DNA from: a virus
DNA: 19,886 nucleotides
Strand: one strand, 5' to 3'
Virus record (IMG/VR): IMGVR_UViG_3300045988_066286
Below the pieces are notes generated by a model. That model had not been told where the DNA came from. It ran no database searches and worked only from the letters and a program-made list of their open reading frames with translations. Shown piece after piece: positions 3,561 through 19,886 of this stretch. The position numbers and the translations under genes are program-made. Each line of letters opens with the position of its first letter. The first letter of the stretch is position 1.

Positions 3561-3569
3561 TGCTATAAT
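3561..3569 (+). promoter_or_regulatory. Extended -10 box TGcTATAAT upstream of the TP-pol operon
   Basis: The same 9-mer occurs at 6048-6056. There is no good -35. Confidence 0.45.
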
Positions 3570-3639: not shown

Positions 3640-4620
3640 ATGTCTCGGAAGCAAAAGCATGTCAAGGCACGTCAGGCCGCGCAAGCACGTGCCGCCCGCA
3701 ATATCAAACAGCTTGGCACTTACTCACACTCGAATCTCGCCAAAACCGCCGACAAACAACTCGTCAATATCGCCAAAACTTTGGGTAAGGAGTGGGAGCG
3801 GCAGAAGAAACAGGCCATCGCGGAAGCGAAGGCAATCCCATATCATGCCACCGCCCTGGAAAAACCGACGAAAAAAGACTACCTGTTTGCCCAGCGCACA
3901 CCCATCACGAACGCGCAAATAGAAGCGGAACCCGTAGCGAAACGTCGCAAACTTCTGCGTCAACAGCAACGGAAAATCAATACGGCACGACGGAAGATCA
4001 ATGAATGGAACAAGGCGCAGGCCATGCCCGCGAGAAGCGTGTATGACCAGCGTGTGGCCGAGATCACCGGCACCACCGGCGAAAGTTTCGGGCGCAATCA
4101 GATCATCCCGTCAAAACTCACCGATTTTCTTCAAATGACGAACGTGCTGTCAGATGAAGCTTTCGTGCGCTCCCAATTGGAAAGCGGGCATCGTAACGAA
4201 TTGCTTGAGCAGATGCACGACGCCGCCGAAATACTGGGATTGCGCACCGAACAGAAACGCAAACCTTCCAAAAAGCGAAAAACGGGCAAGCAGAGCAAAG
4301 ACTTGTACGGCGAGCATGAATGGCCGTCATACATGAGTCGTGGCCGTTATGAGGTGTTCGAGAAAATCTTGTCCACCACGCTCGGCTCGAAACGTTTGAA
4401 ACGATTCCGTCAATTGTCGACAGCGCAAAAGAGGGCTTTTATCGAACAGACAGATGCCCCACGAATCGTGTTCGATTGGACGGTATATGACCCCGTTCGT
4501 CACGGTTTTACGTCGGTGTTTCGGGATAACAGCAAGGGTTATCAGCGTTCCCGCAAGCAGTTTGACAGGTGGATGGCGGAAGCGGGCGCGTTGGAGTTGT
4601 ACCATGACCATGCAGAATAA
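3640..4620 (+). CDS. Candidate terminal protein (326 aa, strongly basic)
   Basis: It lies immediately upstream of the protein-primed-type polymerase and overlaps it by 17 nt. It is K/R-rich. The genome has ITRs, as expected for TP-capped DNA. I saw no recognisable sequence similarity to phi29 p3. Confidence 0.5.
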   Translation: MSRKQKHVKARQAAQARAARNIKQLGTYSHSNLAKTADKQLVNIAKTLGKEWERQKKQAIAEAKAIPYHATALEKPTKKDYLFAQRTPITNAQIEAEPVAKRRKLLRQQQRKINTARRKINEWNKAQAMPARSVYDQRVAEITGTTGESFGRNQIIPSKLTDFLQMTNVLSDEAFVRSQLESGHRNELLEQMHDAAEILGLRTEQKRKPSKKRKTGKQSKDLYGEHEWPSYMSRGRYEVFEKILSTTLGSKRLKRFRQLSTAQKRAFIEQTDAPRIVFDWTVYDPVRHGFTSVFRDNSKGYQRSRKQFDRWMAEAGALELYHDHAE

Positions 4621-6055
4621 AAGAGTGGGATTGTGGTGCGCGGATAACGTCATGCGCTTCACGGACGGAACCGTCCTGCGTGACATCACCGCACCTAACC
4701 GCCTGTTGGCGTTCATCATGTCGAGTGGCAAACTCACAATTTATGTGGCTGATCCAGACGTTTTAGACCCATTCATGGCTCACGTCGTGCACTCTCTCCC
4801 GCACAACGAGCATAATGCTGATTTGAGCTGGGATGCGATAGTGTCGAAAAAAGGCAAGTTCTTCGGCTTCACGGTGCGTATCGACCGTGATAATTCCGCA
4901 CGTTTCTTCGACATATCGAATCTTTTACGCGAAAACTGCCGTATCACCATGACCGACACACAATTGCTCAACATCCTGAGAGAATACGACAGCCGCGGCT
5001 TGTGCAAAATCACGGCGGGCGGTGCGAGTATGGAGGCGTTCGCGTCCGGCGAGTGGAAATGGTTTTACAACAAATTTCCCCAGCTTGAGGATGAAACTAA
5101 AAAGTCATTGCATGACGCCTATATCGGCGGTTTCATGCTAGCTAAAGAAGGGGCGTATGGCAAGGCTATCGACGTTGACTGCAATTCCATGTATCCATCC
5201 ATACTTCGAGACGAATGGCTGCCGTGGGGTGAACCGGAACCATATGACGGCAAATATGAACAAGATAATGATATGCCATTGCATTGTGACGAAATCACGT
5301 TTCGCGCGGAACTCAAACCGGACGGACTTCCTTTTCTGCTCGATAATAGAAGTGTGTACGGGCTGAATCGACTCACCTCAACACGTGGATACGTCACGCG
5401 CGTACTCACCGACATTGACCAACAATTACTCTACAAAAACTATGACGTGAGCATATACAAGCACGTAAGGGGGTGGAAATTCCGCCGCTCAAAAGGCTTC
5501 TTCCGTTCTTTTATCGACGAATGGGGGGAACTGAAACAGCGGGCGACTGGCGAGAAACGGCAAATGGCGAAACTTATTATGAATGCTCTCGTAGGTAAAA
5601 TGGCGAGCTTGCCAAAAGGCGCCGTCATGCTCCCACTCTCTAAAGACGGTGTTACCTTGGACTGGGATGTCGCGCAACGTGAAGAGTCGAATCTGAAAAC
5701 CGACTATCTTCCCGTTCCCGTGTGGGTCAACGCTTATGCCCGCCGAAAGCTTATGGACGTCTGCCGTGCGAACGCCGACAGACTGTTGTACGCAAATACG
5801 GACGGTTGTATTTTGAGTGGCTGGGAGCCGGTGGAATCATGTGACATCCATCCCACCGAATTAGGCAAGTGGAAGATCGCCGCGAAATACGACCGGCTGA
5901 CCATTCTCGGCATGAACAGGTATCAAGGATGGCGAGATGACGGTGAAGTGGACGTCTGCATGGCTGGAAACATGTTTTCCCAGTCTATCCCCTATGAGGA
6001 GTTTAGGCATGGAACGCAAGCCATGGATGATTACGGCACAATGGTTGTGCTATAA
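4604..6055 (+). CDS. Family-B, protein-primed-type DNA polymerase (483 aa)
   Basis: Motifs present: AYIGGF (YxGG), motif A DVDCNSMYPS, motif B KLIMNALVGKM, motif C YANTDG. LPWGEPEPYDGKY..PLH matches phi29 LPYGEPIVFEGKY..PLH. The start was set at ATG 4604 (GGAG 7 nt upstream) because the ORF-track start 4454 lies inside the upstream gene. Confidence 0.9.
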   Translation: MTMQNKRVGLWCADNVMRFTDGTVLRDITAPNRLLAFIMSSGKLTIYVADPDVLDPFMAHVVHSLPHNEHNADLSWDAIVSKKGKFFGFTVRIDRDNSARFFDISNLLRENCRITMTDTQLLNILREYDSRGLCKITAGGASMEAFASGEWKWFYNKFPQLEDETKKSLHDAYIGGFMLAKEGAYGKAIDVDCNSMYPSILRDEWLPWGEPEPYDGKYEQDNDMPLHCDEITFRAELKPDGLPFLLDNRSVYGLNRLTSTRGYVTRVLTDIDQQLLYKNYDVSIYKHVRGWKFRRSKGFFRSFIDEWGELKQRATGEKRQMAKLIMNALVGKMASLPKGAVMLPLSKDGVTLDWDVAQREESNLKTDYLPVPVWVNAYARRKLMDVCRANADRLLYANTDGCILSGWEPVESCDIHPTELGKWKIAAKYDRLTILGMNRYQGWRDDGEVDVCMAGNMFSQSIPYEEFRHGTQAMDDYGTMVVL

Positions 6056-6056
6056 T
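6048..6056 (+). promoter_or_regulatory. Extended -10 box TGcTATAAT overlapping the polymerase stop codon
   Basis: TG 6048-6049, TATAAT 6051-6056, weak -35. It would start transcription near 6063. Confidence 0.45.
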
Positions 6057-6062
6057 ATCCAT

Positions 6063-6232
6063 GTCTTCTTGAGCATTGATCTTCGACTGGGAGCAACATG
6101 AGTCGGACCGCTACGGCTGAGAATGCCGCCGACCATGGAGTCGCTACCGTGGCGGTAGTGCCCTACGATTTTCGACTTGATGCTCGCATAGGACAGTTAG
6201 GCCCCGCGTGATTGCGGGGCCATTTTATTTTC
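6063..6232 (+). ncRNA. Candidate structured RNA of about 170 nt, possibly a phi29-type prohead/packaging RNA (pRNA)
   Basis: It is bracketed by a promoter box (6048-6056) and an intrinsic terminator (6200-6234). The 5' and 3' portions pair: 6071-6079/6177-6185, 6083-6086/6172-6175 and 6089-6091/6161-6163. This closes a junction carrying two hairpins, 6097-6137 (with a 7-nt bulge) and 6142-6160. The alternative reading is a 37-codon ORF at 6098..6211. Confidence 0.4.
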
Positions 6233-6234
6233 TT
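6200..6234 (+). terminator. Rho-independent terminator
   Basis: The stem GGCCCCGC/GCGGGGCC (6200-6207/6214-6221) has loop GTGATT and is followed by ATTTTATTTTCTT. Confidence 0.85.
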
Positions 6235-6240
6235 GCGGCA

Positions 6241-6249
6241 TGATATAAT
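6241..6249 (+). promoter_or_regulatory. Extended -10 promoter TGaTATAAT for the morphogenesis (late) operon
   Basis: It lies directly after the terminator and about 37 nt upstream of the scaffold gene ATG. There is no good -35. Confidence 0.55.
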
Positions 6250-6285
6250 TTTAATGGAAACATTGCCTGCCGGAAGGAGTTTTAC

Positions 6286-6570
6286 ATGGCAGACCCAAAT
6301 ACCGACGGAGAGGAAACCACCACTCCGCCGCCGACCGAAGAGGAACAGCAGACGGAAACCGTGGATGACGAGGTTAAGCCGAAAGAACCGGAACCGGAAC
6401 CGGAACCGAAGCAGGAGCCGGACGTAAGTGCGCGCCTTGACAGCATCGAAAAGGAAGTGGCCGCACTCAAGGCCATGATGGACACGCTCGGCTACACCGA
6501 ACCGGCACCGTCCGACAATGACGGTGACAACGACAATGATGGCGAGTCCATCGAAGATCTGTTTGACTAA
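6286..6570 (+). CDS. Scaffolding protein (94 aa, very acidic, helical C-terminal part)
   Basis: AAGGAG lies 6 nt upstream. The protein is D/E/P-rich and sits immediately upstream of the capsid gene, as phi29 gp7 does. Confidence 0.7.
   Translation: MADPNTDGEETTTPPPTEEEQQTETVDDEVKPKEPEPEPEPKQEPDVSARLDSIEKEVAALKAMMDTLGYTEPAPSDNDGDNDNDGESIEDLFD
6385..6408 (+). repeat. (GAACCG)x4 hexanucleotide tandem repeat encoding (EP)4
   Basis: Four perfect units are read directly within the scaffold gene. Confidence 0.95.
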
Positions 6571-6586
6571 AAGAAAGGTATAAACA

Positions 6587-8308
6587 ATGTCCAATATTCG
6601 ACCACTTGCAGGCAAAGGTGACGTTGAGATTTTCAACGCCGTCCGCAATGCCACTTCACCGCAGTTCCAGACTCGTATTCCGTCCGCAACGCAGGGCAAT
6701 ATCCGCAACGCGGTGGACACCATGCGCAACTTCCCTTACCTTCGCGACGAATTTACTGGGGTATTGATTCAGCGCTTGATCGGCCTTTACATACAGCACG
6801 CGGATTGGGATGACCCGCTCAAGCTGATCGGCTCACCCCGCACCCTCAAGCGCTACGGCAGCACCTACGAGCAGGCCGCAGTGGGTCTCGTCAAGGCACG
6901 TACTCGCAATTTCAACAAGGAATACCTTGGCGATGATGTTTACGGGCGTTACTCGCTTCCGACTGCAAGCGTTTTCCACCCCCTTACTTTCGATCATTAT
7001 TACCCCGTCACCATTCCGGAAGACGCGCTACTGACCGCGTTCGATGGCGAGTCGGGTATGTCGGATTACATTGCTGAGATTATGAACGCGCCTATCCTCT
7101 CGGATAGAAACGATATGTACCTGATGAAGGTGCAGACCTTCGCGGAATACGCACGCAAGGGTGGCTTCTATCGAGTGCATACCAAGGACGTCGGCGCACC
7201 TGACTCCACCGAAGCGGACGCCAAGAATCTGCTTCGCCTTATCCAGCAGACGGCAAACGAACTCAAGGCGTCGCCAATGAGCGCCATGCCGCGATATAAT
7301 GCAATGTCTTGGGTGACCCCGTGGCGCGATTCGGAAGCAATCCTCTTCGCTACGCCGCAGGTTATCGCCGCACTCAACGTCGAAGCATTGGCCGCCGCAT
7401 TTAACATCGATAAGGTCAACGTGCCGTATCGCATCATTCCGATTCCGGAGGACATGTTCGGCATCGGCGGTGCGGCCGGTAAGGTGCAGGCCGTCCTGAC
7501 CACGGAAGACTTCTTCTTCTGCTGGGACGAAATGTTGGAAACCACAAACTCGCCGGTCAATCCGATTGACGGCACGCGAAACATCTTCTACAAGCATAGG
7601 GGGTCTATCACCCCTAATCCGTTCGCAAACGCCGTACTGTTCTGGACCGGCGAAGGCTCCAACGAGTCCGTGACTCTGCCGGACACACTCACCACATCGA
7701 AGCCCGAGTTTACCTTGCGCGTGCGCAAGTATGGACAGCCCGCCATCACCCCCGAAAATGTTTCTCGCGGCGACCTCGTGCAGGTTGAGTCCGTCATTAC
7801 CAGCGCCAACAAGGATACGGCATCGTTCCAGCCGATTGGCATTGCATACGCCGTCGAGGGCGCGTCTTCGCAGTTCACAACCATCGACAACGGGGGTATT
7901 TTGCGTTGTGGTCTCGACGAGACCGCCGAAGCGCTCAAGGTCACGGCACAGGCCACTTATATTGACCCCGCCCACCCTGAGATCGACCAGACGGTTTCCG
8001 CCGCACTGTCCGTGCCGGTGGTTGGCACTTGGCTTGGCGGCTGGAAGGTTGGCGCCATCGAGTCAATTGAGATTCAAGGCGAAAAGACAGTCAAAGTGAA
8101 AGACCATGTCGCGCTTAAAGCGATCGCCACCAAGACGGACGGCAACAAGGCCGACGTGACCAACCTCGTACTGTGGACTGTGGACGCTAACGCGACCATC
8201 ACCCCTAACGGTGTACTGACCGGAACCACAGCGGGCGCCGCCAACGTTTCCGTGAAGTTCGCGGGAGCTACCGGAACGGCAAAAGTCACCGTCACCGCCG
8301 CCGCCTGA
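6587..8308 (+). CDS. Major capsid protein with C-terminal Ig-like (BIG2) domain(s), phi29 gp8-like
   Basis: DVEIFNAVRNATSPQFQTRIPSAT resembles phi29 gp8 [24 protein letters not shown]. The C-terminal ...LWTVDANATITPNGVLTGTTAGAANVSVKFAGATGTAKVTV is a typical BIG2 signature. Confidence 0.9.
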   Translation: MSNIRPLAGKGDVEIFNAVRNATSPQFQTRIPSATQGNIRNAVDTMRNFPYLRDEFTGVLIQRLIGLYIQHADWDDPLKLIGSPRTLKRYGSTYEQAAVGLVKARTRNFNKEYLGDDVYGRYSLPTASVFHPLTFDHYYPVTIPEDALLTAFDGESGMSDYIAEIMNAPILSDRNDMYLMKVQTFAEYARKGGFYRVHTKDVGAPDSTEADAKNLLRLIQQTANELKASPMSAMPRYNAMSWVTPWRDSEAILFATPQVIAALNVEALAAAFNIDKVNVPYRIIPIPEDMFGIGGAAGKVQAVLTTEDFFFCWDEMLETTNSPVNPIDGTRNIFYKHRGSITPNPFANAVLFWTGEGSNESVTLPDTLTTSKPEFTLRVRKYGQPAITPENVSRGDLVQVESVITSANKDTASFQPIGIAYAVEGASSQFTTIDNGGILRCGLDETAEALKVTAQATYIDPAHPEIDQTVSAALSVPVVGTWLGGWKVGAIESIEIQGEKTVKVKDHVALKAIATKTDGNKADVTNLVLWTVDANATITPNGVLTGTTAGAANVSVKFAGATGTAKVTVTAAA

Positions 8309-8328: not shown

Positions 8329-8366
8329 AATAGGTGCGAGAAGACAATTCTCGCACCTATTGTTTT
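8329..8366 (+). terminator. Rho-independent terminator/attenuator after the capsid gene
   Basis: A perfect 14-bp stem (8329-8342/8348-8361) with loop GACAA is followed by GTTTT. Confidence 0.8.
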
Positions 8367-8377
8367 AGGAGGACTTT

Positions 8378-10618
8378 ATGAGCGCAAATGATTTGCCCAT
8401 CAACTTTTCGTACGCGAAATGGACGCCGAACACAAAGTTTAAACTTTGCAATGTCCCGTGGGATATGGGCTACAGGGATATTGTGAAATGGGATAGGCAA
8501 GCCCAGAAAGAGTATTTCGACGGTTTGGATGGCATCGGGTTTACGGATTGCACGATGGCGAAATACGGACTTCCGGTGCGACTGCCGGTGCCGTTTGCTC
8601 AAGCGTCACGATACAATTATTTGATCGCAACTAACGATTATGACTTCGATACCCCCCGTAGTTGGTATTATTTTATCCAGACGTGCGATTACGTCAACGC
8701 CCACACGACGCAGCTGAACATCCAGCTTGACGTGTGGCAGAGCTTCCAGCATGACATCCAGCTTGGTAACGCGTACGTGGAAAGGGGGCATGTCGGCATT
8801 GCGAACGAGAACGCTTGGAAAGACTACGGCAAAACGTATCTTGACCTGCCGGAGGGTCTTGACACCGGCAAATGCACCGTGCTCACCAACGAAGCTTGGA
8901 AACCACTTATGGATGTCGGCGCGCATGACGGAGTGAAATACATATCGTACGGGTTGATTATTGTCAGCACAACCGACCTTGAAGCGGACACCGGCACCAA
9001 GGATAATCCAGTGGTCAACACGGCAACAGGCAGTGCGTTCGAGAACCAACTCAACGGCACCAGCATGTACTATTTGGATACTCCGGCCGATATTGTCACA
9101 TTTTTTACCGAGGGCATGAACGCGCCGTGGGTCACTCAGGGTATCTGTGGTATCTACGCCGTACCACATCTGCCGCAAGCGTTATTGGACGGCCAGCCGA
9201 AAAAAACGGAACTTTTCGGGCATTCAGTCGGTTTTATTGGAAACTGTTGGGAACTGCGCAAAGCTAAAAGCGATTCCAGCGCACGCTACGCGGATATTAT
9301 CAACCTCAAAAACTTCCGCGACACTTTCCAGCTGCCGGAACGCTATAAGTATCTGAAAAAGTTCTTGACAGCCCCTTACGCGTATATCGAATGCAGTTGC
9401 TTGAACGGCACCGTAATCACGTATGAACCTGAACAAATACCAAGTGCTGACCTGATTATCCGAGAATCGTGGAATTACGCGCCACCATCCCCCCGCCTGA
9501 ATTTCTACGCGCGCGGATATCATGCTGGAAACCTTGGCGAACGGCAACCATTGACGGACGGTAAAGGATTGCCTATCGATACGGGCGACATGCTCAACGC
9601 ATCATTTGGTATCACCAATTTCCCAACATTTATGGCGGTGAACAATGGTAGTGCGCTCTCGCTTGCAAACAGCGCGTACACGCGTCAATACGCCCAGCAA
9701 AGCGCGGATTGGTCATACCAGAAAACGCAGATGGGTATCAACAACGCTTACGCTCAAGCGCAACTTGGTACTCAGTATGCGAGTGCGCAAAACCAGCTTG
9801 GCACCAGCAACCGTAACGCAATGATGTCTATCAACAATCAAGCAGCGCAGATGTCGGCCGATCTGACATTGAAAAATCTGAGTTTCGGCAACCGTATGAA
9901 CCAGCTCAATACCATTGGGTCTGGTGTGGCGAACGCGGTTGGTTCCGCCGTTGCCGGTAACGTTGGTGGCGTGGTTGGCGCAGTGGCGGGCACGGCTATA
10001 GGCGCGGTGGCGAACCAGATGTCGTACAACAATGCCGTAGACTCTAACAGTCAGCAATTGTCGAACACGTTGGCAACGAACGGCGCAACCACCTCACAGA
10101 GCAATGCCTACAGTCTCGCGCAAACAAACCTCAGCAATCAGCAGACTATGCAGTTTGCGGATATGAACAGGCAACTTGCACAGGCGACGGCGCAAGGCGA
10201 TTATGAAAACACGATTGCGGGCATTAACGCCCAAGTGCAGCAGACGCAAACGGTACCCCCTACCACGTCTGGCGCGCTGGGCGGCGACGCCTTCAACCTC
10301 GCCAACGGCCTGATCGGTGTGATGGTGCGCTTCCGGCAGATACCGCCAGCAGCCATGCACTCCATTGGTGAGGTATGGTTGCGATATGGTTATTACGTCC
10401 AGAGGTTTATGCGGTTGCCGGAAAATCTTATGGCCATGAGTAATTTTACCTACTGGAAACTCCATGAGTTGTACGTGCGTTCGAGCACGTGCCCCGAAGA
10501 ATACCGGCTTACGGTTAAGGGTATTTTTGAGTCGGGCGTGACGGTATGGACTGACCCCGATAAAATCGGTGTCACTGATTATGCGGACAACGTGCCGCTC
10601 AGTGGTATCGCGTACTGA
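8378..10618 (+). CDS. Tail knob / distal tube protein, phi29 gp9-like (746 aa)
   Basis: NYLIATNDYDFDTPRSWYYFIQTCDYV..QLDVWQSF resembles gp9 YIMFQNADYGNKWFYAFVTELEF..EIDVLQTW. There is an internal Gly/Ala-rich hydrophobic loop. The C-terminal GVTVWTD matches GITLWHTD. Confidence 0.85.
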   Translation: MSANDLPINFSYAKWTPNTKFKLCNVPWDMGYRDIVKWDRQAQKEYFDGLDGIGFTDCTMAKYGLPVRLPVPFAQASRYNYLIATNDYDFDTPRSWYYFIQTCDYVNAHTTQLNIQLDVWQSFQHDIQLGNAYVERGHVGIANENAWKDYGKTYLDLPEGLDTGKCTVLTNEAWKPLMDVGAHDGVKYISYGLIIVSTTDLEADTGTKDNPVVNTATGSAFENQLNGTSMYYLDTPADIVTFFTEGMNAPWVTQGICGIYAVPHLPQALLDGQPKKTELFGHSVGFIGNCWELRKAKSDSSARYADIINLKNFRDTFQLPERYKYLKKFLTAPYAYIECSCLNGTVITYEPEQIPSADLIIRESWNYAPPSPRLNFYARGYHAGNLGERQPLTDGKGLPIDTGDMLNASFGITNFPTFMAVNNGSALSLANSAYTRQYAQQSADWSYQKTQMGINNAYAQAQLGTQYASAQNQLGTSNRNAMMSINNQAAQMSADLTLKNLSFGNRMNQLNTIGSGVANAVGSAVAGNVGGVVGAVAGTAIGAVANQMSYNNAVDSNSQQLSNTLATNGATTSQSNAYSLAQTNLSNQQTMQFADMNRQLAQATAQGDYENTIAGINAQVQQTQTVPPTTSGALGGDAFNLANGLIGVMVRFRQIPPAAMHSIGEVWLRYGYYVQRFMRLPENLMAMSNFTYWKLHELYVRSSTCPEEYRLTVKGIFESGVTVWTDPDKIGVTDYADNVPLSGIAY

Positions 10619-10626
10619 CATATATA

Positions 10627-10660
10627 ATGGAGAGAGTTATGCAACTCTCTCCATTATTAT
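10627..10660 (+). terminator. Perfect 12-bp hairpin (ATGGAGAGAGTT/AACTCTCTCCAT) + TATTATT: attenuator or terminator between tail knob and portal genes
   Basis: Stem 10627-10638/10643-10654, loop ATGC. The tail is A/T-rich rather than a pure T-tract. Confidence 0.5.
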
Positions 10661-10674
10661 TAAGGACGGTGACT

Positions 10675-11616
10675 ATGAGCAAGCGCAATAACGCGCGTAA
10701 GGCAGCGCATTGGGATAACCAGAGCGTGCTTGGCTCAATGTGGGGCAATCTGAATCTGCCTGAAATGCGGCAGTCGCTGCGCATCAATCAGTATATGAAG
10801 CTGATTGAAATGTTGGCGGTGTCGCGTTTCAAATGGATTAACCTGCCCCCCTATATCGATGAAAGATATTTGGAACTAACCCTATTCGAGAATGGCTTGG
10901 CCCTCTTCTTCCCCGACGAGCGTAAGGGAGTACGCCGTTTTATGGTCACGTCGGGCAATATCGGCGGAGTCAACAACTACAATAATCCAACATCATTCCA
11001 GCCGGTAGCCACGAATTACTCTCACCCGCAAATCGGCTCAAAAAAATGTGTTCCTGTTTGGGACAATCAGCTGCGTTGCACCATGATTGATGTCATGTGG
11101 AACTATGCCACGCGATTGGCGATCGCTGACCGCGCGCTGGACGTGAACTTGGACAATATCAGTGTTCCGTTGATTATCGCCACGTCCGAAACCAACAAAC
11201 TCACCGCACAGAATCTTATTAAGGCGCGAGAAGACGGAGACCCCTATATCTACGCGTATGACAGCGCGGATATCACCGGAATGTTTCAAACCTTTCCAAA
11301 CATGACGCCCTTTATGGCGGATAAAATCATTACGACGAAAACGCAAATCTGGAACGAGCTTGTAAACTACCTCGGCATCGACAACAGCACGACCGAAAAG
11401 AAAGAACGTCTGCTCGAATCGGAAGTGACGGCTGGGAACAGTCGTACGAACGTGTTCCGCCTGAGCTATCTTAAGGCGCGTCAACAGGCGTGCGATACGA
11501 TTAACCGGTTGTGGCCGCAAATGGCGGACTTAGGCAAACCAATAAGCATCGAATGGAACGACACCACTTCTGGCGGTTTGCTGGACGTTGACGGAAACAA
11601 GGAGGAAGAAAACTAA
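10675..11616 (+). CDS. Portal (head-tail connector / upper collar), phi29 gp10-like (313 aa)
   Basis: FKWINLPPYIDERYLELTLFENG matches gp10 [23 protein letters not shown], and KKERLLESEV matches KKERMVTDEV. The N-terminus MSKRNNARK is basic. The start was set at ATG 10675 (AAGGA 8 nt upstream), because the ORF-track start 10627 lies within the hairpin. Confidence 0.9.
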   Translation: MSKRNNARKAAHWDNQSVLGSMWGNLNLPEMRQSLRINQYMKLIEMLAVSRFKWINLPPYIDERYLELTLFENGLALFFPDERKGVRRFMVTSGNIGGVNNYNNPTSFQPVATNYSHPQIGSKKCVPVWDNQLRCTMIDVMWNYATRLAIADRALDVNLDNISVPLIIATSETNKLTAQNLIKAREDGDPYIYAYDSADITGMFQTFPNMTPFMADKIITTKTQIWNELVNYLGIDNSTTEKKERLLESEVTAGNSRTNVFRLSYLKARQQACDTINRLWPQMADLGKPISIEWNDTTSGGLLDVDGNKEEEN

Positions 11617-12459: not shown

Positions 12460-13059
12460 ATGAACGGAGTAAACCTATGCGCCGCGCCGCTTGACATTGA
12501 CCCGCGGCAGCGCTATTTCACAACGGTTCAGCCTTTTTCGTACCGCGACACGTTGACCGTGCTCGGTTACGTGCAGGAGGTGGCCGAACATGTGGACGAA
12601 TTGCGCGAGCAGCTTGACAATCTCGCCAAGGACGAGAACGCGGACGTCGAAGCCATCAAACAGCTGATAGCCGGTTTTAACGAACAGTTCGAGCGCATTA
12701 ACAAAACCTTGGATGATTTGGAAAAACAAGTCGGGCAATACGAAGACTCTGACTTAACCTATAATCCGACTCGCGGCAAATATGAAGACTCGAAAAACAC
12801 GAACCGTGACATGTACCGTGAATTGGCCGTGTTCGGCGCGCGCGTCAACCAAATGGCACAACTATCCACGCCAATGGCCGCCGCGCACACATGCCTTGAG
12901 TTCGCGGTGCTTGGCAACAAAACCATTTTTCACAACAACGAGCCACGTATCACGCCACGCGACATACACGTGGATGACGGTGAACCCGTCAGCCCGCTAT
13001 CGGTTGAAAATCTCGCCAATGGCGTCGTGGTCAATAATTTCATGAAAATCGCAAAATAA
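12460..13059 (+). CDS. Structural protein with central coiled coil (199 aa), function unknown
   Basis: GGAGG lies just upstream of ATG 12460, whereas the ORF-track TTG start at 12436 has no SD. It sits within the tail gene block. Confidence 0.6.
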   Translation: MNGVNLCAAPLDIDPRQRYFTTVQPFSYRDTLTVLGYVQEVAEHVDELREQLDNLAKDENADVEAIKQLIAGFNEQFERINKTLDDLEKQVGQYEDSDLTYNPTRGKYEDSKNTNRDMYRELAVFGARVNQMAQLSTPMAAAHTCLEFAVLGNKTIFHNNEPRITPRDIHVDDGEPVSPLSVENLANGVVVNNFMKIAK

Positions 13060-13624: not shown

Positions 13625-15538
13625 ATGGCTACAGTATACACGAAAACCGACAATTACGGCCTGAACCTCTACGGGGACAATGACCCAGCCGATTTAAGGG
13701 ACGGCTACAATGGCAGCATGCGCACCATTGACGATACGCTCGAAAAGCACCTTAACCGCATCGAGGGCGTGGAGTCGCGTGAAACGCACGACGAAGAAGT
13801 AGTCAAAGCACTGATCGGCGATAACACGGTTGACAGCGCCACCGCATCGAAAGCCAAATGGGATAAATCGATTACAGACGCCGCAGCCGCAACCGCCGCC
13901 GCCACAGCCGCAGCAGGTAAGGCGGACAACAATACCGCGATTCTCGCCGCACTCGGCGCGGACTCCACCAGCCACGCCGCCGCCACAAAGACGAAATGGG
14001 ATAAAGCGGTGGATACGGCCAATGGCAACACTCAGTCGTTGACCGCGCTCGGCAGCAACACCACCGCCACCGCCGCCGCAAATAAGACCAAGTGGGATAA
14101 TGCCGCCGCCCGAGTCGAGGAACTTGCAGTCGCGCGCGTGGACAGTAAGCTTGATTCGCGCTTCATCATCCACGCGCACCGCGGCTCCTACCGTTTCCCC
14201 GAAAACACTATGGAGGGCATCATGTGGGCGGTACGTCACGGATACGTCCCCGAAATCGACGTGCAGCTCACGTCTGACGGCGTGCCGGTCATTCTTCACG
14301 ACACTTCCACCGCCCGCACCATGACGGGGACGGCGGCCAACGTATCCTCTATTACCTATGCGGACTTTATGAGCCGTGAAGTCAAGGCGAAAGTGCATGG
14401 TGGTGATACCGGCAAGCCGGTGAGCATGGAGCAGGTGCTTCAAGCTGTGGGCGATAGTCCGGTTGATTTTGAAATCAAGTCATTGAACAACGCAACCACC
14501 GACGCAATGCTAGAACTGCTCAAAAAGTATAACGCCACCGCAATTCACGAATTGACCTCATTCAGTTGGGAACAGTGTGTCCGCGCCGTGCAAGGGGGTA
14601 TAAAATACGTTTCGTGGACGTGGGATGTAGACGCCATGCCGCACTCTTGGACGGATATGAAGAATGCCGGTATTTTCTGCGGCAATCCACGTGAAGACAA
14701 ACTCACTTCTTCGATGGTCAGTGCCGCGCATTCGGCTGGCGTCAAAATTAATCCGTGGTTGATTAACGACCCCGTTGCATATGAGCGTATTTCTGCGCTC
14801 GGGGTGGATGGTATCACGTCCAATTGGCCGGATTATGCGACAAAACAGATGTGTCGCAACTTCACGCCGTTCAGTACCGGCGAAAATACTTTTATCCGTC
14901 CGACACGTTTCCAAGCGTATGGACAGCAAGCGTATGTTGACGTTTCGGACGCGGATAGGGCTAAAAGCACGTATCTTGCACCGGACGGACTGTTCCAGCT
15001 CGGTGACGCGGATGGGCAGATGGCTGTTGAACTTGTCGAGGTTGGACAGGTGACTTTGCCGGTGTCAATCGATCTCGAAGGCTTCATGTCCCGCGTGCAG
15101 ACTGGTACGGCTGGAGATACGCGCAATATTGCAGTAGTGGCCGTCAAAGAAAGCACGGATATTGAACCGTGGGAGGATAACAAGAAGGCTGGACAGGTTG
15201 GCATTATCGCAGGCGTACGCCGTAACGGTGCCACCTTCGGCGGTTTTTATCGAGACAATAGAGACACTGTGCCTTTTGACTCGACCGACACCAAGACGCC
15301 CGCTGTCGGCAATAACGATAGTGTCGCCGTGCATGCGTCCTTCGTGCTTGACAAAGACCATGCACGAATCATTTGGGCCTACTCCAATGGGCAGAATGGC
15401 GACATAATCACGGGCAACAACAAAAACGTCACGCTGCCGGACGAAAAGTACAGGCTCTACTTGCGTGTCAACCGCAATTTTAAGAGCGCTTGGAAAATCA
15501 GGGTACGTTCCACTGACGGCTATCTCTATGAAAGCTAA
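13625..15538 (+). CDS. Tail fibre/appendage with glycerophosphodiester phosphodiesterase (GDPD) domain (637 aa)
   Basis: N-terminal anchor NYGLNLYGDNDPADLRDGYNGSMRTIDDTL. Three Ala-rich K.KWD repeats follow. The GDPD signature is HAHRGSYRFPENTMEGIMWAVRHGYVPEIDVQLTSDGVPVILHD...GVDGITSNWPD (about 14160-14840). There is a C-terminal domain of about 230 aa with unknown fold. Confidence 0.85.
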   Translation: MATVYTKTDNYGLNLYGDNDPADLRDGYNGSMRTIDDTLEKHLNRIEGVESRETHDEEVVKALIGDNTVDSATASKAKWDKSITDAAAATAAATAAAGKADNNTAILAALGADSTSHAAATKTKWDKAVDTANGNTQSLTALGSNTTATAAANKTKWDNAAARVEELAVARVDSKLDSRFIIHAHRGSYRFPENTMEGIMWAVRHGYVPEIDVQLTSDGVPVILHDTSTARTMTGTAANVSSITYADFMSREVKAKVHGGDTGKPVSMEQVLQAVGDSPVDFEIKSLNNATTDAMLELLKKYNATAIHELTSFSWEQCVRAVQGGIKYVSWTWDVDAMPHSWTDMKNAGIFCGNPREDKLTSSMVSAAHSAGVKINPWLINDPVAYERISALGVDGITSNWPDYATKQMCRNFTPFSTGENTFIRPTRFQAYGQQAYVDVSDADRAKSTYLAPDGLFQLGDADGQMAVELVEVGQVTLPVSIDLEGFMSRVQTGTAGDTRNIAVVAVKESTDIEPWEDNKKAGQVGIIAGVRRNGATFGGFYRDNRDTVPFDSTDTKTPAVGNNDSVAVHASFVLDKDHARIIWAYSNGQNGDIITGNNKNVTLPDEKYRLYLRVNRNFKSAWKIRVRSTDGYLYES

Positions 15539-15594: not shown

Positions 15595-16805
15595 TTGATG
15601 ATTGGATCAGGCAGACTCAAGGCCGATTCTGGGACATGGACGGGGCGTACGGTGCCCAGTGCTGGGATTTGTGGGCCAAATATTGCATGGACTTGTACGG
15701 TGCTTCGGTGTCCGATTGCATCACGCCAACCGGCTACGCCGAAGGAAACTACACAAGGTTTCCGACTAACTCTAAGATGGCTGCTATTTTTGAAAAGAAA
15801 CCAGCCGATTATATACCGGTGAAGGGGGATGTGGCGTTTTGGAATTTCTCAAGCCAACACACCGGCTCACATGTCTCCATCGTAATGGAGGATGGCGTGC
15901 ACAACGGGCGTATCACCGTGTTGTCTCAAAACCCGAACCCCGCACAGCGCATGACGTTCGACCTAACCGCATTCCTAGGCTACCTTCACCCCAAGGCACT
16001 AGGCGAAGGTGGCGGCACGACGTCCACCGAAAAGAACCCCACCGGAGACAATAGCCACGGTTCCGCCGACTCCGCGCGCGGTGGCGCGTGGATACACTGG
16101 CAAGGCGACGATCTTTATTTGCACGAAAGCGATAACGCTGGAACGCGGACTCGCATTTTCTACCGCACGACGGCTAATAATTTTTTGGAAAAGGCGTCGC
16201 AATCGCAGCCGTCCAGCGATAACGGGCAGGCGCATCCATCTGTGTCTTTGTCGGCGGAGAACTCTTATGCTCTCTATGTGGTTGGCGCTGTGGAAGCTGG
16301 GTTGCGGTGGGATGCAGTGGAAGCGGCCAACTTGCAGGGTATTGGAATTGCTCAATGGAGTTTCGAGCGCCGCCTGCAAGTGCTGAACGCCATGAAAGCC
16401 GCCGACCCAACCGGATACAATGCGTTCAGAACCGCCGCACCTGAGATCGCCGCGCTTATGGAGTCGGGTGGTACGTTTAAGCGTTCGCTCACTTCAGCGG
16501 AAGCGGCCGCGTTCCGCACGTGGGCGGCACGCAGTGAGTCGCGTGATGGTCAACGCAAGCAGTTCGCGGAAGACTACGCGAGCTACCCTAAACAGTACGA
16601 TGACGCCAGGATGCAAATTCTTTGGGTTACTGCATATCACCAGTCGCCAGCGAACGCGCTCAAAGTGCCGAAAGCATCGAACCTCACACAACTGAAAAAC
16701 AACATTCTAAGCACGTTCCCCTTCGGCCCGTACACGACACGGTATAATCAGGCATTTTCGCTTTTAAGTGTTTGGGATGGCAAGTCTAATCCGCCAGCGT
16801 TCTAA
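15582..16805 (+). CDS. Tail-associated peptidoglycan hydrolase: N-terminal CHAP + C-terminal lysozyme-like domain (407 aa), gp13 position
   Basis: CHAP catalytic motif GAQCWDLW, with the ..HVSIV.. His region. The C-terminal EAG..GIGIAQWSFERR resembles the phage tail lysozyme family. It sits between the fibre and ATPase genes. Confidence 0.8.
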   Translation: MAITFDDWIRQTQGRFWDMDGAYGAQCWDLWAKYCMDLYGASVSDCITPTGYAEGNYTRFPTNSKMAAIFEKKPADYIPVKGDVAFWNFSSQHTGSHVSIVMEDGVHNGRITVLSQNPNPAQRMTFDLTAFLGYLHPKALGEGGGTTSTEKNPTGDNSHGSADSARGGAWIHWQGDDLYLHESDNAGTRTRIFYRTTANNFLEKASQSQPSSDNGQAHPSVSLSAENSYALYVVGAVEAGLRWDAVEAANLQGIGIAQWSFERRLQVLNAMKAADPTGYNAFRTAAPEIAALMESGGTFKRSLTSAEAAAFRTWAARSESRDGQRKQFAEDYASYPKQYDDARMQILWVTAYHQSPANALKVPKASNLTQLKNNILSTFPFGPYTTRYNQAFSLLSVWDGKSNPPAF

Positions 16806-16940: not shown

Positions 16941-18008
16941 ATGACATTACAGACGCTTGACGAGAGCGATTATTACGACCTACACAATCTGTTGACGCGG
17001 AACGCGCCGTGGAATTTCGTGATCGGCGCGCGCGGTTTAGGTAAGACGTTCGCCGCGAAACGGTATGGCATCAAGGAATATCTCAAGCACGGCCATGAGT
17101 TCATTTATCTGCGCCGTACGGACGTCGAACAGCATAGGAAAGAGACCTTTTTCAAGGACATCCAAGAGTTCTTCCCCCAGCACGAATTTCGTGTCAACGG
17201 CGAAAAAGGGCAGATTCATAAAACTACTTGGGACGAGAAGGATTGGCGGACATGTTGCTATTTTGTGGCGCTATCTCAGGCGGGCGGACTCAAGTCTGTG
17301 GCCTATCCTAAAGTACACTTGATTATCTTTGACGAGATCTTTCCAGACAATCTACGATTTCTGAGTAACGAAGTAAACAGTTTTTCAGAATTTTACAACA
17401 CCGTAGACAGGTGGCAGGATAGAACAAAAGTACTATTCCTATCGAACGCGGTGCAAAAAGCCAACCCATATTTTGCCAAGTACCGGCTTGACATTGGTGC
17501 GCAACAAGACAACCAACAACAATACAAGCTTTATTGCAGTGGTTTTATCTGTCTCGAACTAGCGGACTATGGCGGTTTTTCTACCAAAGTCGCCAAGTCA
17601 AAGTTCGGTAGATTTCTTGAGCAGTACGACGGCGACTATGCGGATTACGCGATTCGCAACAAGTTCCGTGACGAGTCAGACACTTTGATAGCGCCAATAC
17701 CCTCAGACGGCGAGCTGTCCTACGTTCTGGACACCACCGATTACGCGCGTTTCGGCATATGGATATCCGTGTCAGAACGAGACGGGCGTGTTTCACAATA
17801 TGTTTCACGACGCATTCCAAAAGACAACAACCGCCCCGTCTACACACTCGACCCAAACCACGTTGACGAAAAAACATGGTATGTCAAAAAGTCGGACGAT
17901 ATAATAAGGCGACTCACCACCGGATATCGACTTGGCAAAATACGATTCGATGACTCACAAGTCAAAGCAGATTTTGGCTTGATTATCGGAGAATTGCTAG
18001 GCAAGTAG
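16941..18008 (+). CDS. DNA encapsidation (packaging) ATPase, phi29 gp16-like (355 aa)
   Basis: NFVIGARGLGKTFAAKRYGIKEYLKHGHEFIYLRRT matches gp16 NFVIGARGIGKSYAMKVYPINRFIKYGEQFIYVRRY. The Walker B IIFDEIF, LSNA and NPYF are also present. Confidence 0.92.
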   Translation: MTLQTLDESDYYDLHNLLTRNAPWNFVIGARGLGKTFAAKRYGIKEYLKHGHEFIYLRRTDVEQHRKETFFKDIQEFFPQHEFRVNGEKGQIHKTTWDEKDWRTCCYFVALSQAGGLKSVAYPKVHLIIFDEIFPDNLRFLSNEVNSFSEFYNTVDRWQDRTKVLFLSNAVQKANPYFAKYRLDIGAQQDNQQQYKLYCSGFICLELADYGGFSTKVAKSKFGRFLEQYDGDYADYAIRNKFRDESDTLIAPIPSDGELSYVLDTTDYARFGIWISVSERDGRVSQYVSRRIPKDNNRPVYTLDPNHVDEKTWYVKKSDDIIRRLTTGYRLGKIRFDDSQVKADFGLIIGELLGK

Positions 18009-19271: not shown

Positions 19272-19529
19272 TCAGTCTCCGTCATTAATCGAAACGATGT
19301 ACTCGCGGCACGGACGTCCTTCCTTTGAACGGATTTTAGCGAGCATGTTGATATCGTAGTTATCACCCAAGAAAACCTCTACGATACCCGCAAGCGCACG
19401 ACGGAACGAAAGAGTAGAATTATCTTCCAGCCCATCGATGGAAGTAAAGCCACTCCAAACTCCCTCAATAGTCACCTCGTATCGATTATCCTTCTCGAAC
19501 TCGATAACATGTGCAGTAAAGTTAATCAT
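19272..19529 (-). CDS. Right-end early protein (85 aa), unknown function
   Basis: It starts at the ITR-borne ATG (19529), with the same promoter, UTR and SD as the gene at 358, but the protein is unrelated. A faint HicB/UPF0150-like pattern (Y.V.IEG...G..S.) is not trustworthy. Confidence 0.7.
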   Translation of the reverse strand: MINFTAHVIEFEKDNRYEVTIEGVWSGFTSIDGLEDNSTLSFRRALAGIVEVFLGDNYDINMLAKIRSKEGRPCREYIVSINDGD

Positions 19530-19609
19530 TTTATTTTCCTTTCCCTTGAACTTGATAACTACATCATAACACAAACAAAACAACGACACGCCCGAAAACA
19601 AAATGAAGC

Positions 19610-19646
19610 AAAAAAATAAAAGACAGCCACCGAACGGCCGATAGCT
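19610..19646 (-). terminator. Intrinsic-terminator-like hairpin + T-tract inside ITR-R
   Basis: Mirror of 241-277. Confidence 0.5.
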
Positions 19647-19684
19647 ACGGTTACGTTACCGTAACTTAGTCAAACACAGATTGT

Positions 19685-19713
19685 TGTATATACAACCATT
19701 GACACAGTGTCAA
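19685..19713 (-). promoter_or_regulatory. Inward-facing ITR promoter (P-in), right copy
   Basis: Mirror of 174-202. Confidence 0.45.
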
Positions 19714-19746
19714 TAAAAAAAAACGACACGCCCGAAATAAAAAAAC

Positions 19747-19775
19747 TTGACAGGCAAGCGCAAAAAAAATATAAT
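19747..19775 (+). promoter_or_regulatory. Perfect consensus promoter facing the right genome end (ITR copy)
   Basis: TTGACA 19747-19752, 17-nt spacer (ggcaagcgcaaaaaaaa), TATAAT 19770-19775. The predicted start is near 19782, about 105 nt from the terminus. Confidence 0.6.
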
Positions 19776-19886
19776 AGAGGCGTAAACAAAACAAAGTGAC
19801 AACGAGATCACAGAACAAAAAAAAATAATACACAAATAAAAAAAACCACGTGGGAAAATCTTCACACACACCCACACCCCTCCCAC

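Follow-up and report, generated by a model that had tools for sequence, protein, structure and literature searches.

A candidate packaging RNA gene between the polymerase and scaffold genes of a phi29-like Bifidobacterium phage

The packaging or prohead RNA (pRNA) is, to our knowledge, the only RNA that serves as an essential structural part of a viral DNA-packaging motor, and it is widely used as a building block in RNA nanotechnology. In phage phi29 the four CE-loop bases that adjoin the E helix, AACC, make contact with GGUU in the D loop. These two loops pair between copies of the RNA (PMC2241910; PMC4201828), and natural pRNAs have two (GA1), four (phi29, M2 and B103) or five (SF5) such pairs (PMC4201828). 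According to recent reviews, pRNA is found in phi29 and its Bacillus relatives alone (PMC11476376, PMC5066667), and the packaging field assumes that pRNA contacts are conserved in other phi29-like ATPases (bioRxiv 10.1101/2020.07.27.223032). Here we analyze the gap between the DNA polymerase (pol) and scaffold genes in IMG/VR virus record IMGVR_UViG_3300045988_066286, the whole stretch of which (19,886 bases) is referred to as the window. By analogy with phi29, and with a probability of about 0.78, we consider that this gap would hold the prohead RNA gene of an actinobacterial phi29-like phage, working as in phi29. An earlier reading of the letters alone (the sequence-only reading) had placed a candidate pRNA between pol and scaffold, and this proposal is now supported by the fold, covariation, the poor conservation of a small open reading frame (ORF) among relatives, bulge/loop complementarity and the motor genes.

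Predictions of pRNA outside the Bacillus phages have been made before. One was published in 1996 for Streptococcus phage Cp-1 (Martin et al., as cited in PMC6266182), an RNA that a Bacillus-based covariance model does not reliably find (PMC6266182). In the record of Actinomyces phage Av-1 (NC_009643), whose host is also an actinobacterium, a "packaging RNA" is annotated as misc_RNA at 16295-16402. Covariation support for the Cp-1 or Av-1 predictions was not found in the literature or records searched, nor was any report of a pRNA in phages of Bifidobacterium, Arthrobacter, Curtobacterium or Microbacterium, the Av-1 record being the sole actinophage exception. Among these papers and records, the candidate described here is the first pRNA outside Bacillus phages with covariation support. 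The novelty claimed in the sequence-only reading has to be narrowed accordingly, since the Cp-1 and Av-1 proposals precede it.

Fold and conservation of the RNA

That the pol-scaffold element is a real, conserved and structured RNA of the + strand is nearly certain from the comparative sequence data. The element lies at window 6048-6234 on the + strand, and numbering follows window positions throughout. R1 denotes a covariance model built here from the Bifidobacterium RNA; lengths are in nucleotides (nt) or base pairs (bp).

6048..6056, + strand: extended -10 promoter box TGCTATAAT, identified by sequence; putative promoter
6063..6194, + strand: Domain I, the folded core, 132 nt; R1 scores 128.9 bits
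6063..6091, + strand: A helix, 5' strand, with pairings 6063-6067/6190-6194, 6071-6079/6177-6185, 6083-6085/6166-6168 and 6089-6091/6161-6163
6097..6137, + strand: C/E hairpin, with C helix 6097-6100/6134-6137 and 6102-6106/6129-6133 separated by a 1-nt bulge
6107-6113, + strand: CE bulge within the C/E hairpin, 7 nt
6110..6113, + strand: GCUA (consensus GCCA), the last four CE-bulge bases, next to the E helix; partner UGGC at 6150-6153
6114-6117/6125-6128, + strand: E helix of the C/E hairpin, with E loop UGAGAAU at 6118-6124
6142..6160, + strand: D hairpin, 8-bp stem and UGG loop; the stem continues directly into the CCC of the A helix
6161..6194, + strand: A helix, 3' strand, including an unpaired U-rich stretch at 6169-6176
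6200..6234, + strand: Domain II, intrinsic terminator; the terminator scan gives a 9-bp hairpin at 6200-6221, then a T-tract
6241..6249, + strand: another extended -10 box, TGATATAAT, from which late transcription of scaffold and capsid genes presumably begins; it lies outside the RNA and marks its boundary

Retrieval via the capsid protein gave 80 related IMG/VR loci, which together with 5 GenBank records make 85. The RNA region is present in all of them, in the same pol-scaffold gap and at 70-98% identity; in the five GenBank records the gap measures 228-230 nt and nothing is annotated there. Removal of duplicates and truncated copies left an alignment of 78 distinct sequences, the window and 77 relatives (5 GenBank, 72 IMG/VR), to which the counts below refer. 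An exact-motif scan of IMG/VR found the element in 76 contigs of about 6-20 kb, mostly 17-20 kb. One motif match on an 89-kb contig was rejected as chance; it lies inside an ORF of 515 amino acids and has no R1 match.

The RNAalifold consensus of the 78 sequences is the same as the single-sequence fold. With the bulge/loop pairs included, 98.5% of the 3664 pair cells are standard pairs, and double changes occur in 20 of the 47 pairs, compared with 9.6 +/- 1.4 in shuffled alignments, none of which reached 20 in 500 attempts. Covariation among relatives was one of the checks that the sequence-only reading had proposed, and compensatory changes thus proved abundant. As a control, sliding the 3' partners by 1-3 columns left pairing at only 34-50%, and a trimmed realignment of 6063-6194 gave the same picture (40 nested and 4 bulge/loop pairs, 96-98.5% paired). 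Moreover, 98.6% of cells are paired when the alignment is read as the + strand and 88.0% when it is read as the - strand, and G-U pairs make up 10.8% of cells; because of these two observations, the structure is taken to be under selection as RNA, on the + strand.

The sequence-only reading had also suggested a search for complementarity between the 7-nt bulge and the loop of the second hairpin. Such complementarity was found, and it covaries, with 97.4% of cells paired. The outer pair of this contact is G-C in 64 sequences, G-U in 9 and A-U in 5, never A-C, and the two middle pairs are always standard, either C-G or, in five sequences including the window, U-G. The five A-U sequences represent four separate lineages whose nearest neighbors carry G-U or G-C, which indicates repeated compensatory change. 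A pRNA is expected to show 2-5 bp of complementarity between CE bulge and D loop, and GCCA/UGGC falls in this range; by analogy with the kissing contact of pRNA, the pairing would occur in trans, between molecules.

The minimum free energy (MFE) of 6060-6234 is -69.4 kcal/mol, versus -53.8 +/- 4.3 for 200 dinucleotide shuffles (z = -3.66; 0/200 as good), so that a comparison with shuffled controls, likewise proposed beforehand, comes out in favor of the real sequence. The MFE fold consists of an end-pairing helix, a bulged hairpin (6097-6137), a second hairpin (6142-6160) and the 3' terminator hairpin, and reproduces the layout that had been read from the letters. Folding energy alone is no discriminator for this region, and the strong evidence is comparative: in a 170-nt sliding energy scan of the first 14 kb, the RNA region ranked 11th of 355 (z about -4.2), behind hairpins after the capsid and tail-knob genes. 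Directly 3' of those two genes lie long perfect hairpins of 14 and 15 bp with U-rich tails, at 8329-8361 and 10624-10657. They have the strongest folding z-scores of the scan (-4.5 to -6.9), and are probably partial terminators or mRNA stabilizers inside the late operon. R1 has no second match above 10 bits in the window beyond 6063-6194.

The individual elements differ in how they vary. In the A helix, compensatory changes are found in the distal and middle parts, and the junction-proximal part is almost invariant. Two details of this helix as first drawn had to be revised. The proposed pairing 6083-6086/6172-6175 is specific to the window, since only 71% of its cells are paired across relatives, equal to shuffles; the conserved alternative, 6083-6085/6166-6168, is 99.6% paired with both sides nearly invariant. 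The middle of the A helix is best read, across relatives, as 5 bp, a bulged U and 3 bp, the pair following the bulged U being standard in 78/78 sequences with C-G to U-A changes. The C/E hairpin has 9+4 pairs and an unbroken 3' strand of 13 nt. In the D stem seven pairs are 100% paired, five of them with compensatory changes (the closing pair is assigned to the bulge/loop contact), and the closing G-C pair is itself well conserved.

The RNA would have signals of its own for transcription. The extended -10 box that had been noted at 6048-6056 is present as TGCTATAAT, overlapping the last pol codons including the stop TAA at 6053-6055. A TG-N-TAT(A/G)AT box before the RNA is kept in 77/78 aligned sequences, and A-to-G changes in it switch the pol stop from TAA to TGA. 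The window contains six copies of TGNTAT(A/G)AT where 0.95 are expected, a number reached in 0/200 shuffles, as follows from a motif scan:

316, 1136, 3561, 6048 and 6241, + strand, and 19563, - strand: copies of TGNTAT(A/G)AT

Intergenic copies head gene blocks at 3561 (before TP/pol), 6048 (before the RNA) and 6241 (before scaffold), and the motif looks like a phage-specific promoter set, although the -35 regions are poor. Between the -10 box and the point where conservation of the RNA sets in (GUCUU, from 6063), the spacer differs among relatives in both sequence and length, which fits a predicted transcript start at about G6063, 7 nt past the box; the predicted transcript, including the terminator, would measure about 168 nt. 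A hairpin followed by a T-tract is present at 6200-6234, as had been claimed, but the stem at 6200-6221 comprises 9 pairs, 8 of them G-C, and not 8 bp; ATTTTATTTT follows directly, and the stem shows compensatory changes from CCCCG/CGGGG to CCCTC/GAGGG. The terminator scan found none between the pol stop and the RNA, and consequently pol mRNA should read through the RNA.

Likeness to phi29 pRNA and the packaging motor

The order and sizes of the elements agree with the Rfam consensus structure, in line with the phi29-pRNA-like layout that the sequence-only reading had described. The secondary structure expected of a pRNA, with an A helix, a three-way junction, a C/E hairpin with a 5'-strand bulge and a D hairpin, is present. 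In the following comparison phi29 is represented by the consensus structure line of Rfam family RF00044 (Phage_pRNA), which stands for the pRNAs of Bacillus phages phi29, PZA, M2/Nf, B103, SF5 and GA-1, and the window by the structure line of R1.

A helix: formed from the 5' and 3' ends in phi29 pRNA and window RNA alike
A-to-C linker: 1 nt in phi29; 5 nt, unpaired, in the window
C helix: 5 bp, 1-nt bulge, 4 bp in phi29; 3 bp, 1-nt bulge, 6 bp in the window (register of the model; the window's own fold gives 4+5)
CE bulge, on the 5' strand only: 9 nt in phi29; 7 nt in the window
Bulge bases adjoining the E helix: four, complementary to the D loop, in both
E helix: 4 bp in both
E loop: 6 nt, UUGAGU, in phi29; 7 nt, UGAGAAU, in the window; UGAG common to both
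C/E hairpin, 3' strand: 13 unbroken nt in both
C-to-D linker: 3 nt in phi29; 4 nt in the window
D hairpin: 6 bp with a 5-nt loop in phi29; 8 bp with a 3-nt loop in the window
D stem into A-helix 3' strand: zero unpaired bases in both
3' domain: dispensable in vitro in phi29 (174 vs 120 nt; PMC11476376); the terminator hairpin in the window
Length: 174 nt in phi29 and about 170 nt in the window, with cores of 117-120 and 132 nt; a 3' hairpin domain in both
G+C content: 41% in phi29 pRNA; about 56% in the window RNA

The two phages are also of one type, with genomes of about 19 kb, protein-primed replication, a gp16 ATPase and a gp10 connector. In phi29 the pRNA gene closes the leftward early operon, 3' of pol and behind a promoter of its own, A1; the window RNA, directly 3' of pol, likewise stands last in the replication block. 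The gene place nevertheless differs in that the window RNA is found in mid-genome, in a one-strand arrangement and directly after pol, whereas that of phi29 is at the genome end, after genes 1A-1C.

Judged from its sequence, the window is a phi29-like phage of a gut actinobacterium (Bifidobacterium). The closest public genomes are those of the Bifidobacterium podophages BP1 and BD811P1-3 and an unannotated human fecal contig (74-80% nucleotide identity). Perfect 361-bp inverted terminal repeats occupy 1-361 and 19526-19886, and the window is therefore a complete linear genome; nearly all of its genes are on the + strand. Pfam was used to identify the gene products:

ORF 4454-6055, + strand: protein-primed type B DNA polymerase
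6587-8308: phi29-type major capsid protein (Phi29_MCP, 3.7e-58)
8378-10618: tail knob
10675..11616 (listed ORF 10627-11616), + strand: gp10-type connector (portal), presumed RNA-binding partner (PF05352, 1.8e-39)
16941..18008, + strand: gp16-type packaging ATPase, presumed second RNA partner (PF05894, 2.9e-47, full-length match)

Both presumed pRNA partners named in the sequence-only reading, the ATPase and the portal, are thus encoded, and the genome combines the components expected of a phi29-like phage and its motor, namely a gp16-type ATPase, a gp10-type connector, Phi29_MCP, a protein-primed type B polymerase and the 361-bp repeats. The ATPase is 30% identical to phi29 gp16. The listed start of the connector, ATG 10627, falls within the 15-bp hairpin 3' of the tail-knob gene; the true start is likely ATG 10675, which would give the basic N-terminus MSKRNNARK. 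This N-terminus resembles the RNA-binding N-terminus of phi29 gp10.

Other features of the genome were noted in passing. The listed pol ORF (4454) overlaps the preceding ORF of 326 amino acids by 167 nt, and shorter polymerases are annotated in relatives. Each terminal repeat contains a perfect TTGACA-17-TATAAT promoter consensus directed outward to the genome end (140 to 112 on the - strand; 19747 to 19775 on the + strand), together with a terminator-like hairpin (239-264; 19623-19648). A late protein of 637 amino acids, encoded at 13625-15538, carries a glycerophosphodiester phosphodiesterase domain (PF03009, 1.6e-23) and may be a teichoic-acid-degrading tail enzyme.

If the RNA works as in phi29, its transcription would begin at the extended -10 promoter in front of it, or run on from pol mRNA, and would end at the terminator 6200-6234. 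Its central part, comprising the three-way junction and the C/E and D hairpins, would bind the connector end of the prohead, where copies may form a ring, each joined to its neighbor by pairing of its bulge bases 6110-6113 with the neighbor's D loop (6150-6153). The gp16-type ATPase, the pump that drives the protein-primed linear genome into the head, would then dock on the protruding A helix. The transcription of the RNA, its ends, its binding to prohead and ATPase and the need for it in packaging are steps that we infer by analogy.

Weighing the pRNA interpretation

Our results favor a pRNA, which is the best supported interpretation because of the architecture, the genome context and the covarying kissing contact. 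However, they should be read with some caution, since several observations weigh against it. A scan of the whole window with Rfam gave no family at gathering threshold, RF00044 (gathering 100 bits) has no match in 5950-6350 (401 nt) even at E <= 10, and a search with R1 in turn leaves phi29 pRNA undetected. Because no sequence statistic links the two RNAs, homology to phi29 pRNA rests on architecture and context. The A helix of the window is more interrupted than that of phi29, with larger internal loops, and no CCA bulge is evident in it. In the bulge/loop contact the fourth pair, next to the E helix, is broken in 8/78 sequences, and the closing pair of the D stem must open for the contact to form, because C6153 also closes that stem. 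Conservation of the -10 box could be partly attributable to coding, because the box overlaps the pol stop codon. Finally, R1 restricted to the corresponding gaps of the Arthrobacter and Curtobacterium phages described below gave weak matches, and these to the C/E hairpin only (10.1 bits, E = 0.012; 5.1 bits, E = 0.18).

As a positive control for the Rfam search, RF00044, a family built from Bacillus phages only, finds phi29 pRNA with 145.4 bits. The matches that other families gave at E <= 10 (e.g. anti-hemB, 20.9 bits vs a threshold of 49.5) were discarded as small-RNA look-alikes driven by the terminator hairpin.

The gap could instead hold some other conserved noncoding or 3' untranslated element, such as a stabilizer of pol mRNA, a terminator insulating early from late genes or a small RNA of the early-to-late switch, its likeness to pRNA being convergent. 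Such a role would agree with the read-through of pol mRNA into the RNA, with the position of the RNA exactly at the early/late boundary, adjoining the late promoter, and with the missing statistical link to RF00044. We nevertheless consider it unlikely. A terminator or stabilizer needs no 132-nt three-way junction with nearly invariant junction and loops, no covarying bulge/loop complementarity and no elements in the order and sizes of phi29 pRNA, and the layout recurs in two further actinophage clades that share the gp16/gp10 motor. Complementarity to a target, as for a switch RNA, was neither found nor needed to account for the data.

The same complementarity between bulge and loop might reflect a pseudoknot inside one molecule, in which case the RNA would be monomeric, whatever its role. 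The sequence data do not separate pairing within a molecule from pairing between molecules. The equivalent phi29 loops, however, pair between molecules (PMC4201828, PMC2241910), and bulge and loop belong to different arms of a single junction whose D stem seems to stack on the A helix, as it does in phi29; a pseudoknot is accordingly an improbable explanation, and we prefer contact between copies of a pRNA.

A signal at the level of DNA, for instance a protein-binding site for the control of transcription or for replication with no RNA involved, would suit a region between two promoters, but is very improbable. The G-U pairs found in 10.8% of cells would be A-C mismatches on the other strand, pairing is only 88.0% when the sequence is read as the - strand, and covarying positions lie up to about 130 nt apart.

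That the region encodes a small protein is, finally, a possibility so slight that it can be set aside: the 37-codon ORF at 6098-6211 has an ATG in the window with GGGAG 4 nt upstream, but the ATG is kept in 36/78 sequences (the others have ATA, ACG, ACA, GCG, GGT, CGT or TAT), reading from the aligned start gives anything between 1 and 51 codons with 16 sequences lacking any ATG ORF in the region, frame-breaking single-base indels occur, and substitutions are compensatory across stems with no codon periodicity. Conservation of this ORF had been named in advance as an outcome that would speak against a pRNA; the ORF is not conserved, and the pRNA interpretation stands.

Related phages and significance of the RNA

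A comparable gap, likewise unannotated, immediately precedes the scaffold gene in other actinobacterial phi29-like phages, and in two groups of these an RNA could be delimited:

Arthrobacter phage Anjali, 4991-5096, with terminator to about 5135, in a 303-nt gap before the scaffold gene: RNA, unannotated; relatives are loci L092-L109 of our set (Anjali is L090)
Curtobacterium phage Squall, 4081-4193, with terminator to about 4240, in the gap before the scaffold gene: RNA, unannotated; relatives are loci L111-L114 (Squall is L089)

The Anjali gap folds with z = -5.2 and on the same plan. Together with ten IMG/VR relatives (11 sequences) it yields 35 consensus pairs, 18 with compensatory changes. 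In the Arthrobacter RNA the C/E hairpin carries a 6-nt bulge on its 5' strand, the E helix is CCCC/GGGG and the E loop UUGAAU. Bulge and D loop (NUAGCN) are complementary, through GCU/AGC in every sequence and CAGCU/AGCUG in Anjali. The Squall gap has z = -5.0, and five distinct Curtobacterium lineages (Squall, Reje, Grotle, Ayka and Ellison17) share the C/E hairpin, a 7-nt bulge and the E loop (C/U)UGAAA, the Squall bulge, AUCGCUA, being nearly identical to ACCGCUA of the window. Curtobacterium D loops contain UUGC. In one type, bulge UGCAG pairs with UUGCA; in the other, the partners are CGCUA and UUGCG, where one change is compensatory and one position is a U-U mismatch. Covariation in this group is thin, because there are only 5 distinct sequences. 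In Reje an annotated coding sequence, 4056-4508, overlaps the RNA and may have been called too long.

Compared with the window, the Arthrobacter and Curtobacterium RNAs occupy the same slot and have the same layout, including a 6-7-nt bulge on the 5' strand, D and terminator hairpins and bulge/D-loop complementarity. They are barely alignable with the Bifidobacterium RNA, and their kissing sequences differ. R1 found nothing significant genome-wide in phi29, BadAztec2, Av-1, Squall or Anjali, and RF00044 has no match in the Squall, Anjali and BadAztec2 genomes. These RNAs suggest, on fewer sequences, a wider family.

Two further phages did not extend the comparison. BadAztec2, a honeybee Bifidobacterium phage, is the nearest outgroup (ATPase 44% identical), and its 178-nt gap after pol (12706-12890, - strand) starts with a TGCTATAGT box. 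The gap contains an end-pairing helix, and its G+C-rich hairpin lacks a U-tract. Its layout could not be fitted to the pRNA plan; the inner fold consists of one long stem and two small hairpins (z = -2.0). The "packaging RNA" annotated in Av-1 was rejected as a comparator, as it overlaps two opposite-strand ORFs near the right end and folds with z = +1.0 relative to shuffles, and it is probably not the real pRNA of that phage. Between pol and ORF8 of Av-1 (4290-4615) there are a small ORF, a promoter annotated in the record and a strong terminator, and the gap before ORF 8 is limited to a short segment and a terminator.

Experimental work on pRNA and the Rfam model rest on a narrow group of Bacillus phages. 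The RNA described here would show which features of pRNA are truly conserved, namely the junction geometry, the 9+4-bp C/E hairpin, the position of the kissing bases and the UGAR motif of the E loop, and it bears on whether the RNA is ancestral to the phi29-like phage lineage. For engineering it would offer natural three-way junctions rich in G+C together with new kissing pairs, and it would correct the annotation of about 80 or more genomes whose gap is now empty. The human-gut Bifidobacterium phages that carry the RNA are abundant, and there are probable counterparts in soil actinophages. The prediction is directly testable, since there are cultured phage-host pairs, namely BP1 with B. pseudocatenulatum U19 and BD811P1-3 with B. 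dentium DA811.

In a broader perspective, the balance tips slightly toward pRNA being an ancestral and widespread part of the phi29-type motor. G+C-rich versions of it in actinophages (Bifidobacterium, Arthrobacter, Curtobacterium) would then lie before the scaffold gene and keep the three-way junction, the bulge/loop ring contact and the UGA(G/A) E-loop motif across phyla. If this is true, the Rfam model and the statement in reviews that pRNA is confined to Bacillus phages would cover one branch of a far larger RNA family.

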